Positions 35,399 to 60,603 of a stretch of 64,000 nucleotides of DNA are shown here, piece after piece. The DNA comes from an uncultured Chthonomonadaceae bacterium (lineage in GTDB: Bacteria > Armatimonadota > Chthonomonadetes > Chthonomonadales > Chthonomonadaceae). The notes under the pieces were generated by a model. It did no database searches and was not told the DNA's origin. It saw only the letters and a program-made list of their open reading frames with translations. The DNA is taken from contig CAWFQB010000001.1 in assembly GCA_963817895.1 (NCBI GenBank), positions 320,001 through 384,000 of the forward strand, written 5' to 3'. The translations under genes were made by a program, and so were the position numbers. Position 1 is the first letter of the stretch; each line of letters opens with the position of its first letter.

Positions 35399-36385
35399 TC
35401 ATCTGACGGCACAGGGTTCTGTTTCGCTGTGGGCAACGGCTTGCGACGCGGCGGCTTGCCCCTGATAGACAAGATACTGCTTGTCTACGGGACACTTCCA
35501 GCCGTCGCGCATCCCGCGCAAAAAGTAGATGACGCGGTTTAGTCCGAACGGACGGCGCAGAGCCATAGCCGACCAGAGCGTAGGCGCAACGGCATACGCG
35601 CCGAGTTCCCACAACAGCAGGACAAGGGCCGCCGGGTGTCCGCGTTTGAGGGGCTTGATATGGGCCGCGCCAATGCCATAAAACGCATTGCAGGCCAGCG
35701 CGCGTCCCTCGGTCCAGTTGCGGAAGCCGTAGTGGTACACTCTGCTGTCACGCGATTCGTAGACATGGAACCCGGCAAGAACGCACCGAATGGTCATGTC
35801 CCGATCCACGCAGGCTTTGAACGAGCCGCCGGGGCAGAGTTCGGGGTCGAACCCGCCCAACCCGAGAATATGCCGCCGATTCACAACGGTATTGGCCCCG
35901 ATGCCGCGCGCCGACAGCTTTTGCCAGATGTTGGTGACGAGCCGATCCTGATTGACGTAGTAGGTGGGGATAAATCCTTGCAGCGGGTCGTGGTCTACGG
36001 GCAGCACATTGCCGTAGGTGATCGCCAGTTTCTCATCGCGGGCAAACGCCTGCACCTGCTGAATGGGCCAGTCGGCAAGAACTTCACAATCATCATCCGT
36101 AATGGCAACGAGGTCGTGTTTTGCCAGGCGCAAGCCCTCGTTCAGCGCCAGCCCTTTGCCCTGCGTGTCGGTGTGAATATAGCGCAGGCGCGGATCATCG
36201 CGAAAGGCTCTGAGCGCGTCTTCTGTGTTCGAATCGGAGGATTGGTCTACAATCAGCAATTCCTCGCAGCGCGTGTCGGCGGCAAGGATGCTGCGCACAG
36301 TGGGTATCAGGGAGCCGCCACGATTCCGGGTGCAAATCAGCACGGAAAAAGGGTCGCAGGTTGTAGCCGATTGCTGTAGTAGCAT
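35399..36385 (-). CDS. Family 2 glycosyltransferase
   Basis: SVLICTRNR, VDQS, TDDDC, GGFD. Confidence 0.9.
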   Translation of the reverse strand: MLLQQSATTCDPFSVLICTRNRGGSLIPTVRSILAADTRCEELLIVDQSSDSNTEDALRAFRDDPRLRYIHTDTQGKGLALNEGLRLAKHDLVAITDDDCEVLADWPIQQVQAFARDEKLAITYGNVLPVDHDPLQGFIPTYYVNQDRLVTNIWQKLSARGIGANTVVNRRHILGLGGFDPELCPGGSFKACVDRDMTIRCVLAGFHVYESRDSRVYHYGFRNWTEGRALACNAFYGIGAAHIKPLKRGHPAALVLLLWELGAYAVAPTLWSAMALRRPFGLNRVIYFLRGMRDGWKCPVDKQYLVYQGQAAASQAVAHSETEPCAVR

Positions 36386-36641
36386 GTCTCTCTTTTGATT
36401 ATATTTTACATGTCCCGTTCGCGCAGGGCGAACACTCCTCGGACGTTTCCAACGCCTATTTTCGGCGCGTTACGCGGCTCGCTGTAACCTCTTCCCCGAC
36501 ACGATGCGAACTTGTAAGGCAAACGTTCGGCTGCTTCCGGCGGCACTCCTGTGATTTTGACGAATAACCCGGTATATAAGTTCATATTACCAGAAAACGG
36601 GGAAATCGGTACGGTGAATCTACATTTTTCAGGGCTAACGC

Positions 36642-37061
36642 CTCTAAACGGAAAAAGAAAAGAGTATGTAGAGACAGCGTCGAAATATTGGCAATGCAGC
36701 GCTTTCAGCCCAGTGTCTCGTTGTGTCAAGTTTTTATGTCGAGGCGTCGTGACCTCCGTAGGGTTAAGGAGAACGAGTATATACAGGCATCATCCAGCAC
36801 CTCCCTTCCAGGTTAGATTGTTGTGAGCGCAGAGGAACTCCGCGCTTTCAACGGCCCGCCACCTGGCTATTTAGTAGACGCATGTTTAGACGAGGCGAAT
36901 ACAGAAGGGGGTTCGTTTATTTTGCTGTTTAACCAGAAACTTTTCTACCTTTTTTACGCGTTCCTGCTGGCTTTGGCAACAGGAAAAAGGAGCAGGCACA
37001 GCATGGGGGCGAATGTGCCACGACGAGATAGGTGTTGAGCATTTTAGATGCGCCGATCCTG
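36642..37061 (-). repeat. Copy A of a ~420-bp dispersed element (candidate sRNA or micro-ORF transcript)
   Basis: Homologous along its length to 59136-59566 in inverted orientation. Confidence 0.85.
36764..36790 (-). CDS. Candidate micro-ORF MPVYTRSP (copy A)
   Basis: SD GGAGGTG; ATG CCT GTA TAT ACT CGT TCT CCT TAA. Confidence 0.55.
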   Translation of the reverse strand: MPVYTRSP

Positions 37062-37953
37062 CACCCTTTTAGCTATGCGCTTACCGCGCTCCGCTTTTGC
37101 ATCCATTCTGCCGCCTGCTGCGTGGTCAATTTTTTGGTGATGTTGCCTTCGCGGGTGTAGATGTCGCCGTTCAGGTAAACGGGCGTGGCGGAGGGCGCGA
37201 CTTGCACAAGGCAAATCGAACCGCCGGGCAGGGGTTCGACGCGCGGCTGAACCAGGCCATGCGGAAGCGGCTGTAGGCGTTCCGTGACCATCTGGTTGAT
37301 CTTTTCGATCAGGCCGTTTTCATTTTTGTGGTTGCAATGGGGCAGGTCGCGCCCGATGCCTTTGATTTCGCCCTTATCGGATACGCCAATGAGCAGTTCG
37401 CCGCCCCCGGTGTTCAGAAACGCGGCGATCTCCTTCAGGCTCTGCCCCTTTTCGGCGTCTTTGGGATCGCCGGTGTAGGTGTCTACGGCAAGGGTTTCCT
37501 TGAACTCGATGCGCGCGCCTTCGCCTTCAGCGATGCGCCGCAGCAGGGGATGCGAAGTCCAGTAGCCGGGGGGCTGCGCCAGAACGTATTCGCACCGCGC
37601 CAGATGATCGGCGTATTCCGCTTTCACCTGCTCCATTACCTTTTGCGAAATCGCTAGTGTGTCGTAGCGGCGACAGAACCACAGTTCGATCTCGCGTATA
37701 TCTTCGGGTTCTAAGCCATACAGGGCGTAGGCAATTCGGTCAATTTCCTGTTGCTCGTGAAGATGATATGGGTAGCGTGGCTCTACCTTCTGCTTCTCAA
37801 TAATTTGTTCAACAAGAGTGGGAATGTTGGTACGAATAATTTCTTCAACAGAAGGAATTACAAGTTGCTTCATAACTTCTTCCGGAATGTGTCAAGGATT
37901 TTGAGACAAAAAGCGAAAGTATTTTTATGTAGCGAGCAGTCATTCCTCGCCAC

Positions 37954-57408: not shown

Positions 57409-58443
57409 TCAGACCGATTCATCTAGGCCGATTTCCGCCCAGACAAAAGGTGCTTCACGTTTCAACTGCTCCACTCCTTCAGGAGAAACAAACAAATATG
57501 CTTCCATTAGTGTCCCATGAAAACAATAAGAGTATTTTAAGAGGGAGGTAGCGCTGATAAGACTTCCCAGTTCATGGCGTACGTGAAAATTTACCTTATC
57601 ATATAAATCCAATTGTTCTTCAAAGGTGGCGTTTGGTGCTCCCATTGTCTCATAGTGCATCTCTCGAAATTCAGTAAGTTTTCTTGCCTCATAAGAGTTT
57701 TTAGCACGAAACCACAGTAGTAAAACAGCCTGCCATGGGAATGGCTTACCAGCGAAGCGAGCGCGCAAGATTTCTTTGTTTTTCAAAGCGTGCGCCATGT
57801 AGTAGGCGGCTTCATAAGTAAGTCGTGGCTTTTCTTGCTTAGGCTCTACAAGTTTGCTAGGGACTTCACAGTTTAGACCCTCATGGTCTTCTTGGATGAA
57901 TTGGTAGACTGACATTTCCAGTCCATGCTTGACGTTTGCTGGATAGTAACGAAAAGCAGATACATATCTTCTCCAATAACGCAGAGTTTCATAAACGCGC
58001 ACTCCTACAAGAATCTGATTACCGTCAGCCACACTCATGACTCTCTGTGCCAGATTGATGCCTGCTCCTGCAACGTTTGGATTTCCATTAATGTCGGTTA
58101 TGCGATTGTCCAGATTCTCATTCAAACCAATCCGAACTTTGAACCTTTGCGTATAGTGTTCAGCGTGTTCGTTGTGTTTGTGTACGCCTTTAAGAATGCT
58201 TAAGGCAAGTTGTAAATGAACATCATAAGGTTCTAAGAGGTCAAGTAGCCCTATGCAAATCCCGTCTCCTGTAGGCGAGAGTATATGAGATGACGCAACA
58301 AGCTCATTCGCTTTGAGAGCCTCAATTACAATCTTGTTGAGTGCATCAATAATCTCAGATTGATCCTCCACACACCTATCTAGGGTAAAGCCCACAATAT
58401 CCAAAAAAACGTATTTGGCCTGAGTCGTTTTAGTTTCAGTCAT
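57409..58443 (-). CDS. Class III nucleotide cyclase domain protein with unknown C-terminal domain
   Basis: FLDIVGFT, TGDG, VRIGL, GAGINLAQRVM; AT-rich relative to flanks. Confidence 0.8.
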   Translation of the reverse strand: MTETKTTQAKYVFLDIVGFTLDRCVEDQSEIIDALNKIVIEALKANELVASSHILSPTGDGICIGLLDLLEPYDVHLQLALSILKGVHKHNEHAEHYTQRFKVRIGLNENLDNRITDINGNPNVAGAGINLAQRVMSVADGNQILVGVRVYETLRYWRRYVSAFRYYPANVKHGLEMSVYQFIQEDHEGLNCEVPSKLVEPKQEKPRLTYEAAYYMAHALKNKEILRARFAGKPFPWQAVLLLWFRAKNSYEARKLTEFREMHYETMGAPNATFEEQLDLYDKVNFHVRHELGSLISATSLLKYSYCFHGTLMEAYLFVSPEGVEQLKREAPFVWAEIGLDESV

Positions 58444-58653
58444 TGAAAATGCCTCATAAGGTGAGTTCCCCCACAAGTGCAAACACAAAATGTCGCCGTA
58501 CTGCTGGACGCGGTATAGATCGTTCCCTGTAGTTACCCTTCACAGCGAACTCAATCCTTGTTCAACTTTTGAGAGGTCCATGTTCCTACGCGATACACGA
58601 ATGTCAGACGCAACTGGCCCGGTTCGTTTTCTGTCAGTTCGGCTTGTTCTGCC

Positions 58654-59135: not shown

Positions 59136-59566
59136 CAGGGCCGACGCATCCAAGATGATCAACACCTGTGCTGTCGTGGCACATTCGCCACTATGTTGCG
59201 CCTGTCCTCTCTCCCCGTCGCCAAATTCAGCAAGAACACGCAAAAACGTAGAAAAATATCTGCGTAAATGGCAGAAACAAACGAACCTTCTCCATGTATG
59301 CCTCGTCTTAATCCTTACGCATGTCTACTAAACAAAGACTGCTAACAAGCCGGGCGGCGGGACGTTGAGAGTCTAAAATTCCTTTCAACAATCTAACCTG
59401 GAAGGGAGGTGCAAGAGGATGCCTGTATATACTCGGTCGCCGTAACACTTTCGAGGTCACGACGCCTCTACATACAATTTGACATAACGAGACACTGGGC
59501 TGGAAGCGCTGCATTGCCACTATTTCGACGCTGTCTCTACATACCTTTTTCTTTTCTCATTTAGAG
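59136..59566 (+). repeat. Copy B of the ~420-bp dispersed element
   Basis: Homologous to 36642-37061. Confidence 0.85.
59419..59445 (+). CDS. Candidate micro-ORF MPVYTRSP (copy B)
   Basis: SD GGAGGTG; ATG CCT GTA TAT ACT CGG TCG CCG TAA. Confidence 0.55.
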   Translation: MPVYTRSP

Positions 59567-59602
59567 CGGATGCTGTGGGCCAACCGCAGAGCAGCTTGCA
59601 AC

Positions 59603-59658
59603 CTTAACGTAACCTTAATCAAAACTTAACGTTCTCTTAATACTCCGGTGGTTATAAT
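59603..59658 (+). promoter_or_regulatory. Four CTTAA direct repeats at 11-bp period plus TATAAT (Pho-box-like)
   Basis: CTTAA at 59603, 59614, 59625 and 59636; -10 at 59653-59658. Confidence 0.6.
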
Positions 59659-59751
59659 AAGTATGTCGCTGAATCACGATGTCGCGACTATCCTGCAAGC
59701 CCGCTGCATAGCTGCATTTGGGCTGCCGCCTTGAGTTTGAGGAGATAACCA

Positions 59752-60603
59752 TTGAAACGCAAAGCGTTTACCCTGATTGAGCTACTCGTCGTTATTGCCA
59801 TTATCGCTATTCTGGCGGCTATTCTGTTCCCCGTGTTTGCGCAGGCGCGGGAAAAGGCCCGACAGACAAGCTGCCTTTCCAACAACAAACAGCTAGGGCT
59901 TGCATTGAGCATGTACGCTCAAGATTATGATGGCACGCTGATGCAGACTTCGTGGGAACTTGGCAGTTTCAAGGCCAAAGTGCATTGGTCGTACCTGGTG
60001 CAGCCTTACGTCAAGAATCAACAGATTTTCGTGTGTCCCTCCGACCCTACGCCCGTAAAGCCCCTGAACCGATTGTGCGGCCCCGGCGACACCGTTGGCG
60101 TAACCCTGTGCGACGCGCAGGCTCCCCTGTTCTCGTACATCAACAGCTACAACGTGATGCCCGCCCACGACTGGCTGCCGCCGTCAGAAGCCGCCATTGA
60201 CAAGGCCGCCAATACCATTGTTTTAGGGGAACGCCGCAACAATATGAACGACCCCGCCATGACGCTTATCGGGCAATGGAAGGGAACATCGGCCTTTGTC
60301 GCCACGAGCGGCGGACATGGAACCGGCAGCGGCAGCGGCCAGATTTGCCCCGGCGACACCTTTCGCTTTGTGACGCTTGCCGATGTCAATGCGGGACTTG
60401 CGCCCACCAACAGCAACGACAACCCGGAAATCGTGCGCGTGAAATTCGACCGGCACACGGGCGGTTCCAACTACGCCTTTTTCGACGGTCATGCCAAGTG
60501 GTTCCGATTGGAACAGACGTTCGATCCCGGCAACTGGCAGTGGGGCGACAAGTGGTATCCCACGCCGAACCCGGACCCGCGCGCCGCTTCCAAATGTAAA
60601 TAA
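59752..60603 (+). CDS. Prepilin-type N-terminal methylation / DUF1559 / H-X9-DG protein
   Basis: [50 protein letters not shown]. Confidence 0.92.

Follow-up and report, generated by a model that had tools for sequence, protein, structure and literature searches.

A 64 000-nucleotide stretch of the genome of an uncultured Chthonomonadaceae bacterium (GenBank assembly GCA_963817895.1, contig CAWFQB010000001.1, positions 320 001 to 384 000; hereafter the window) holds two copies of a unit of about 430 bp with a micro-ORF (ORF, open reading frame) for the peptide MPVYTRSP. The question raised by this locus is whether such a unit is a leader of the gene that follows it, a mobile repeat or a small gene in its own right. 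The evidence set out below identifies it as a member of a family of free-standing small genes, in which the end of the micro-ORF and the RNA segment downstream of it are conserved. In one subfamily, to which both window copies belong, the gene is carried in a miniature inverted-repeat transposable element (MITE) of an ISAs1-family insertion sequence (IS).

The two copies are in inverted orientation, 22 kb apart. They are 76 % identical over 420 nt (BLAST), and the mean column identity of a MAFFT alignment that includes the flanks is 81 %. Their micro-ORFs, ATGCCTGTATATACTCGTTCTCCTTAA and ATGCCTGTATATACTCGGTCGCCGTAA, both encode MPVYTRSP followed by a stop, and the three differences between them are all synonymous third-position changes (CGT/CGG, TCT/TCG, CCT/CCG). 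Both copies have the Shine-Dalgarno (SD) sequence GGAAGGGAGGTG, the hairpin GAGGTCACGACGCCTC (H1), a GAGACA...TGTCTC pairing and a pyrimidine tail. The original prediction, made from the window alone, had described the synonymous ORF pair, the strong SD, the GAGG/CCTC hairpin, the GAGACA...TGTCTC pairing, the pyrimidine tract and the boxes GAACC-16/17-CGTCT, and all of these are present; the peptide and its three changes are exact in both copies. The limits of the copies, given there as 36642-37061 and 59136-59566, were redrawn to 36630-37061 (minus strand) and 59136-59580 (plus strand). However, what had been taken for a two-copy duplication is part of a family with between 6 and 161 members in each genome, and both the size of this family and the inverted ends of the 430-bp unit had been missed. 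The features of the two copies, in window positions, are as follows.

36630..37061, minus strand: copy 1, complete MITE-type unit of 432 bp, bounded by both inverted ends
37040..37061, minus strand: copy 1, 5' terminal inverted repeat CAGGATCGGCGCATCTAAAATG, 2/22 substitutions relative to the IS-end consensus, aligned with the ISAs1 ends of loci L086 and L087
36888..36914, minus strand: copy 1, promoter boxes GAACC-N17-CGTCT of extracytoplasmic function (ECF) sigma type, A-rich stretch upstream
36826..36868, minus strand: copy 1, 5' untranslated region (UTR) with conserved box AGCCAGGTGGCGGGCCGTTGA and variable hairpin
36798..36809, minus strand: copy 1, SD GGAAGGGAGGTG (identity 0.83, 46 copies)
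36764..36790, minus strand: copy 1, micro-ORF MPVYTRSP, stop TAA
36741..36756, minus strand: copy 1, hairpin H1 GAGGTCACGACGCCTC, beginning 7 nt past the stop (identity 0.94)
36665..36722, minus strand: copy 1, near-invariant 3' RNA domain AACGAGACA...TGTCTCTACATA (identity 0.90)
36630..36664, minus strand: copy 1, pyrimidine-rich tail and 3' terminal inverted repeat TTTAGAGGCGTTAGCCCTG (3' inverted end at 36630-36648)
59136..59580, plus strand: copy 2, complete unit, 5' inverted end (59136-59157) kept, 3' end (59560-59580) degenerate
59283..59308, plus strand: copy 2, ECF-type promoter boxes GAACC-N16-CGTCT
59400..59411, plus strand: copy 2, SD
59419..59445, plus strand: copy 2, micro-ORF MPVYTRSP, stop TAA
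59453..59468, plus strand: copy 2, hairpin H1
59486..59543, plus strand: copy 2, near-invariant 3' RNA domain

The family and its conserved core

The genome that holds the window (G000; 7.48 Mb, 14 contigs, 81 % complete) was searched with BLAST and two rounds of nhmmer, and the profile search recovered 46 full cores plus fragments. A 31-nt motif taken from the invariant part was then sought, with up to 3 mismatches, in 401 genomes of the phylum and in a backwards-read control. It occurs 47 times in G000 and 161 and 6 times, respectively, in two congeners, G002 and G001, with no match in the other 398 of the 401 sampled genomes and none in the backwards-read sequence. The 46 full cores and the 47, 161 and 6 motif matches, set against zero backwards, place the family well beyond chance. 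With a 191-nt BLAST query, matches were confined to the genus among the 41 genomes searched (G000 and 40 relatives). The searches of the genome and the phylum that had been proposed alongside the original prediction thus reveal a multi-copy family, found among the genomes searched in one genus of soil bacteria only. A scan of public genomes added further copies; the matches listed fell in two records, which leaves room for other taxa. At the Rfam gathering thresholds the window yielded two tRNAs only and no match to the element, which at E values up to 10 gained only a chance match to a lncRNA (E 0.43). A literature search on small RNAs (sRNAs) of Armatimonadota and on MITEs with small ORFs found nothing comparable, as judged by the search entries.

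The core shared by the copies is about 165 nt long and consists, from 5' to 3', of a CA-rich leader, the SD GGGAGGTG, a gap of 6-8 nt, the ORF (8-9 codons, or 15-16 in G001), a 7-nt spacer, H1 (GAGGTCACGACGCCTC), an A/C-rich linker, a 58-nt domain AACGAGACA..GCTGRAAGCGCTGYATTGCCANNATTTCGACGCTGTCTCTACATA and a pyrimidine-rich tail. Pairs of the 46 G000 copies have a mean identity of 0.39 for the 5' UTR, 0.83 for the SD, 0.69 for the ORF, 0.42 for the spacer, 0.94 for H1, 0.67 for the linker, 0.90 for the 3' domain and 0.41 for the tail, and 36 of the 59 columns of the 3' domain are invariant. This domain is nearly identical in both congeners. In G001, the most distant congener, the ORF region is twice as long and cannot be aligned, and there is hardly any change in H1 and the 3' domain. 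Since these two segments have the highest identities and are kept in G001, constraint on the core is strongest in its RNA-level part. Forward-frame and reverse-strand ORFs in the 3' domain were considered and rejected by eye, as copies differ there by indels of 1-2 nt.

The micro-ORF was assessed in 149 distinct copies (46 from G000, 97 from G002 and 6 from G001), which share descent, so that the counts that follow are not counts of independent events. Every one of the 149 copies has a stop 6-8 nt ahead of H1, and in 145 the distance is exactly 7 nt. In 144 copies the SD and an in-frame start (ATG in 138) are intact; the remaining 5 ORFs are broken by frameshifts or a nonsense change. Among the 144 intact ORFs, the residue at position -3 is Arg in 135 (CGT 98, CGC 20, CGA 9, CGG 8) and that at -1 is Pro in 142 (CCC 99, CCT 23, CCG 14, CCA 6), while position -2 is occupied by Ser (100), Pro (34), Ala (7) or Gln (3). 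The peptides, 8-16 residues long, take 75 distinct forms, in which the N-terminal and middle residues vary, and the length differences are whole codons that keep the frame. The stop is UAA or UGA in 148/149 copies and TAG in 1/149. Among 2644 long ORFs of G000 used as background, 25.8 % end in TAG and 19 have an RxP-stop end. The spacer is fixed in length, with a sequence just 0.42 identical.

These observations support constraint on the micro-ORF at the amino acid level and an RNA that is read as codons, because the first two codon positions are fixed and the third is free, the stops are TAA or TGA and not TAG, and the spacer is held in length only. Conservation of the peptide at this level, proposed originally from two copies, holds across the larger set, with synonymous use of CGN and CCN codons; the scatter of frameshifts and the loss of the SD that would have spoken against it were not seen (5/149 ORFs broken, SD kept). 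As judged from the alignments, the selected feature appears to be Arg-x-Pro followed by a stop readable by release factor 2 (RF2), at a set distance from H1.

An ECF-type promoter had also been predicted, and here the boxes are conserved while the spacer between them varies. An A-rich stretch, GAA(A)CC, 16-17 variable bases and [CT]GTCT were found in 25 of the 27 best-scoring G000 copies examined, and ECF-type boxes are also present in 69 of 79 further copies. In G000, 48 sites match a regular expression for this motif, and 29 of these are at elements. Another match, GAAACC-N17-CGTCTA, lies 124 nt upstream of an ECF-type sigma factor gene (TIGR02937, 109 bits, cut-off 42.9; contig C7:160581-161306, within the locus C7:160457-161306, L090:157-1006). 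The best equivalog-type matches of this gene, SigE and SigW, are both below their cut-offs, and no obvious anti-sigma gene follows it on C7. We regard its product as a candidate autoregulated sigma factor and a candidate regulator of the family. In 13 copies, there is a different promoter, of the extended -10 type, consisting of the palindrome TTTTCGCGAAAA and ATACTTCTAAAA...TGTTAATAT. Because different promoters are found on the same core, the sequences suggest a regulated gene family. In this second subfamily a dispersed palindromic repeat, of the type CCTTCTCCCTGCAAGGGAGAAGG, stands beside CCGGATGAGGGTAG upstream, and the perfect palindrome TTTTCGCGAAAA adjoins the promoter; sites of the CCTTCTCCCTGCAAGGGAGAAGG/CCGGATGAGGGTAG repeat include C14:~609900-610060, C5:~311250-311400 and C2:~732800-732950 of G000. 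A scan for consensus terminators and sigma-70 promoters around copy 1 found nothing at the element, and a sigma-54 promoter was rejected by eye from the box spacing.

Likeness to arrest peptides and the proposed mechanism

The end of the micro-ORF corresponds to the RxP part of the RxPP signature of arrest peptides, with the stop codon in place of the second Pro. For a ribosome with this stop in its A site, the distance from the first base of the P-site codon to the start of H1 is 13 nt, which puts H1 at the mRNA entrance of the ribosome footprint. In two published reports, RxPP with x = Gly, Ala, Ser or Pro is found in arrest-inducing sequences, RSPP and RDPP being partly permissive and under-represented in proteomes (PMC12992588), and a minimal RxPP motif is reported as sufficient (PMC10951233); the Ser, Pro and Ala found at x in the element are among the residues described there as permissive. 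Two others describe Pro-stop contexts that stall termination, Glu-Pro-stop (EP-stop) being used as such (10.1101/2021.08.16.456513), and arrest of PepNL with RF2 at UGA (PMC11890864). Stalling at termination is a reasonable extrapolation from these systems, and a termination-arrest micro-ORF is proposed because the ORF end matches the RxP part of the published signature. In the arrest-peptide idea of the original prediction, the resemblance stands on comparative grounds, and the stalling would be an extrapolation from it.

The known systems resemble the element in part. As in the RxPP/RAPP peptides ApdA and ApdP and in SecM with its RAGP, an Arg, a small residue and a Pro would occupy the peptidyl-transferase centre at the C-terminus. 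However, those peptides are long, exported monitoring substrates encoded upstream of genes of the Sec/YidC pathway, whereas those of the element are of 8-16 residues, free-standing and multicopy; the element is not upstream of a regulated protein-localization gene, and its neighbours are varied and in either orientation. With TnaC and PepNL it shares a short ORF, a stop read by RF2 (UAA or UGA in 148/149) and Pro at -1 (142/144); TnaC ends in Pro-stop. Unlike it, TnaC and PepNL are single-copy leaders that control the next gene, and 20 of the 46 G000 copies have no co-oriented gene downstream. Dual-function sRNAs are built on a similar plan, one short transcript in which a small ORF is translated and a conserved RNA module lies apart from it. 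Of these, SgrS/SgrT, RNAIII/hld and SR1/SR1P are each encoded by a single gene, their peptides have 26-43 residues and their base-pairing targets are mapped, whereas the element has 6-161 paralogues and an arrest-type ORF, and antisense matching found no target for it. Finally, a very short ORF behind a strong SD recalls the bar minigenes of phage lambda, which have 2 codons and act by peptidyl-tRNA drop-off, their expression tying up the translation apparatus. Unlike the element, these have no conserved RNA domain downstream and are not a host gene family.

In the reading that we favour, each copy would be a small gene with its own promoter, mostly of the ECF-sigma type and of another type in one subfamily. 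It would give rise to an RNA of ~200 nt, the 5' part of which would be translated very efficiently (CA-rich leader, strong SD) into a peptide of 8-16 residues with Arg-x-Pro directly before UAA or UGA. The peptidyl-tRNA(Pro) bearing RxP would be released slowly by RF2, so that the ribosome would stay on the stop codon, its front abutting H1, which starts 7 nt on. The parked ribosome would then control the fate of the 3' domain, that is its folding, stability or completion, and the 3' domain would be the effector and bind a partner. The family would have spread within the genus by duplication, with one subfamily, including both window copies, travelling as cargo of an ISAs1-type MITE. We hold this account, of a free-standing translated sRNA gene whose RxP-stop micro-ORF parks a ribosome by H1 and so governs an invariant effector domain, only tentatively and put its likelihood a little short of even. 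Comparison of the copies largely bears out the original prediction that an ECF-driven transcript encodes an arrest-type micropeptide. What the sequences themselves establish is the family and its layout, the constraint on the end of the ORF and on the spacing, the invariant 3' domain, the MITE shell and the independence from adjoining genes; transcription and stalling, like every action of the RNA, are what we infer.

Several results weigh against this account. Copy numbers of 6, 47 and 161 and the MITE shell fit selfish amplification. Covariation, a check proposed at the outset, was found for 0/19 predicted pairs of the core, although it is unable to test the fold of the 3' domain because the sequence there barely varies; in the 5' UTR, compensatory change in 2/7 pairs of an outer stem, GUUGA/UCAAC, gives weak support. 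Folding energies are ordinary (z-scores -0.29 and +1.36). A canonical intrinsic terminator was not found at the G000 copies. A search for antisense targets of the invariant loop gave a best match of 14 nt, which is the chance level. Moreover, the known RxPP sequences stall in elongation, with Pro-tRNA in the A site, where the element has a stop codon, and most known RxPP arrests need a nascent chain longer than 8 residues.

A bolder extension, which we rate as distinctly doubtful, is that such RNAs, from dozens to more than 100 in number, are all turned on together by a stress sigma factor and would act as an inducible genome-wide brake on, or sensor of, translation termination, with the 3' domain as a handle that recruits a common partner. 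Each RNA would capture a ribosome, RF2 and tRNA(Pro) in a long-lived RxP-stop complex against the hairpin, and the family would be a host-encoded, inducible counterpart of toxic minigenes, part of it carried by a MITE.

Mobile ends, neighbouring genes and rival readings

The long form of the element, which includes both window copies, starts with CAGG(G/A)(C/T)CG(G/A)CGCATC(T/C)AA(A/G)ATG, and well-kept copies end with its inverse. Relative to the consensus shared with the IS, the 5' ends of copies 1 and 2 have 2/22 and 3/22 differences, respectively. The same ends bound two elements of G000, C4:225500-226770 (1.27 kb, L086) and C9:136907-138149 (L087), and a deletion derivative on C8. In the C4 element, an ORF of 388 residues encodes an ISAs1-family transposase (PF13808, PF01609; NF033564, E 1.6e-120, 402 bits, cut-off 70). 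The ISAs1 copies are 1.24-1.27 kb, and another extends from C3:746423 to where the contig ends. Within the transposase gene of the C4 copy a segment is duplicated in tandem and in frame, so that the peptide AMSCQTETV occurs twice, and the C8 derivative (C8:16906-17508, L088) is an internal deletion of about 600 bp.

The 430-bp shell of both window copies is therefore a MITE of an ISAs1-family IS, and the match to a MITE or IS end that the original prediction had counted as evidence against itself was found for this outer shell. As in other IS-derived MITEs, there are inverted ends of the type of a resident IS, 10-11-bp duplications, no transposase, a length of 420-480 bp and filled and empty sites. 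Clean target duplications of 10-11 bp flank three copies bounded by terminal inverted repeats (L003, L005, L035) and neither of the window copies, and a site filled in G002 (L056) is empty and continuous in G000 (C5:675051-675054). Unlike a typical MITE, however, the unit carries a whole small gene that is itself under constraint, and most members of the family lack MITE ends; the search entries of the literature search included no comparable MITE report. The 5' and 3' inverted ends are present in 8/46 and 11/46 copies in G000, 6/34 and 5/34 in G002 and 0/6 in G001, and no ISAs1 transposase was found in G001 or G002. In a rough tree, the copies with terminal inverted repeats are mostly in one group, and the G001 copies form a group of their own. 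Hence only one subfamily is a MITE. Because most copies are without inverted ends, our reading is that the core is probably older than the MITE, one lineage of the small gene having been enclosed by a pair of IS ends. In the left arm of the MITE, which looks like the transposase-proximal end of the IS, a divergent mini-ORF (window ~37003-37035) was discarded, as it is not kept in other long copies.

Copies also appear to recombine with each other, because the species share the 3' half of the unit at one orthologous locus, where the promoter and first ORF codons come from different subfamilies, and because two G002 copies appear to have exchanged flanks. A near-identical subfamily, MFHPSRSP, dominates G002. 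Several of its copies (loci L067, L070, L072, L074, L076) have similar flanks of ~25-30 nt on both sides (CCCGCYGG...GAAG..ATAGATT), which suggests a preferred repeated target or a second, unrecognized route of spreading. Retro-mobility through a reverse transcriptase (RT) was rejected, as the RVT_1 gene of G000 has no link to the family. G000 and its congeners have one or two RVT_1 genes each. That of G000 (RVT_1 only; C6:132735-134165, L186:2235-3665, minus strand) adjoins a SWIM/BRCT gene (C6:134278-136257), has a solo ISAs1-type end just past its stop and may be a defence-type RT.

The whole family could be mobile DNA, made up of the ISAs1-type MITE and of derivatives that decayed or were mobilized in other ways, with the conserved ORF end and 3' domain serving only the spread or persistence of the element, or reflecting a few master copies, and with no role for the host. 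The ends shared with the resident 1.27-kb IS, the target duplications, the filled and empty site, the absence of the element at the loci orthologous to that of copy 2, the copy numbers, the dominance of MFHPSRSP in G002 and the apparent exchange of flanks all argue for this. However, the ends are scarce and the two congeners lack a detectable ISAs1 transposase. A DDE transposase needs the ends and not an internal ORF or 58-nt sequence, yet it is the ends that are less conserved, and the promoters differ between subfamilies as in a regulated gene family. We consider an entirely selfish family unlikely.

The genes next to the copies bear on a second alternative. Those adjoining the window copies, outside the element, include the following.

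59752..60603, plus strand: DUF1559/prepilin-type gene with its own conserved promoter (PF07596, PF07963)
35399..36385, minus strand: family 2 glycosyltransferase (GT2) gene, 286 nt downstream of copy 1 (PF00535)

On their other sides, copy 1 adjoins a gene for a Schlafen (SLFN) AlbA_2-domain protein (window 37073-37873, minus strand) and copy 2 one for an adenylate/guanylate cyclase-domain protein (window 57409-58488, minus strand). Neighbouring genes were called by a codon-usage score trained on G000. The next gene downstream is co-oriented with 26 and convergent to 20 of the 46 G000 copies; seven strong convergent genes end no more than 223 nt from the element, and 3/6 copies in G001 face a convergent gene; behind the 3' domain of these three there is a short hairpin with a U run. 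Copy 2 is 215 nt upstream of the DUF1559 gene; in G001 and G002 the orthologues of this gene have kept a promoter region of their own and lack the element upstream. The genes flanking copy 1 (GT2, SLFN/AlbA_2) have no orthologues in the congeners, and the genes flanking copies differ (GT2, SLFN/AlbA_2, DUF1559 and others). As it occurs in either orientation relative to its neighbours, the element is a free-standing small gene and not a leader, as one of the original proposals had it; nor do neighbours that vary from copy to copy support another, a precursor like those of ribosomally synthesized and post-translationally modified peptides (RiPPs). The DUF1559 promoter region (window 59590-59745 and loci L093, L094 and L095), conserved in three species, has a TATAAT box as well as recurring AACCTTAA/CTTAAC words, and members of this large paralogous gene family may share it as a site of control. 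In G001, L036 has a co-oriented gene ~140 nt downstream of the element that resembles an Orn/DAP/Arg decarboxylase by eye, from its N-terminus only.

A portable cis-regulator would combine a movable stress-inducible promoter with a translation-coupled attenuator, RxP-stop stalling deciding on read-through past the weak 3' end into the gene downstream, as in TnaC. The co-orientation of both window copies with the next gene (at 286 and 215 nt), shared by 26 of the 46 copies, is in keeping with this, as are the lack of a detected canonical terminator at the G000 copies and the C/A-rich, G-poor linker after H1, a composition that resembles a Rho loading site. It is made rather unlikely by the 20 copies facing a convergent gene, with seven strong ones ending so close, by the 3/6 in G001 and by the DUF1559 promoter, which is conserved in species without the element; the invariance of the 58-nt domain would also be unexplained.

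If the 3' domain, by base-pairing or by sponging a protein, were the whole function, the ORF would stabilize the RNA or be incidental, with no programmed arrest. Such a plain sRNA family would fit the conservation of the 3' domain and H1, which are the best conserved segments, and a high copy number, which suits a titrating RNA; ECF regulons do include sRNAs, such as MicA, RybB and MicL under sigma-E in Escherichia coli. We judge it very unlikely, as it leaves unexplained why a strict Arg-x-Pro-stop is maintained while codons change synonymously, why TAG is avoided and why the distance is held at 7 nt, and as no enriched complementary target was found beyond the chance-level match of 14 nt. 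That the peptide itself is the product, as a secreted signal, RiPP core or ribosome-tunnel-binding peptide, is extremely improbable: both of its ends are conserved (M-P/F ... R-x-P) and the variants PVYI and PIYI presumably recall the start of the apidaecin core, but the neighbours differ from copy to copy and neither an exporter nor a modifying enzyme is close by, the 75 peptides differ freely in their middle residues, an unmodified cytoplasmic peptide of 8 residues would be short-lived, and the RNA domain would be unexplained.

Meaning for the genus and for arrest peptides

The units of this family escape gene callers and Rfam, and by a rough estimate they fill about 1 in 100 intergenic regions of these genomes. 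The arrest peptides known so far are single-copy leaders that report on one pathway, and here a signature of the same kind, made up of Arg-x-Pro, a stop read by RF2 and a hairpin at a set spacing, is found in a free-standing gene that has multiplied to 6-161 copies and stands behind an ECF-type promoter. If the free-standing gene does stall ribosomes as we propose, its micro-ORF would be a minimal natural substrate, of 8 residues, for arrest at termination. An arrest cassette could then be coupled to a trans-acting RNA, and the MITE would be spreading a complete regulatory gene, beyond a promoter or a hairpin.

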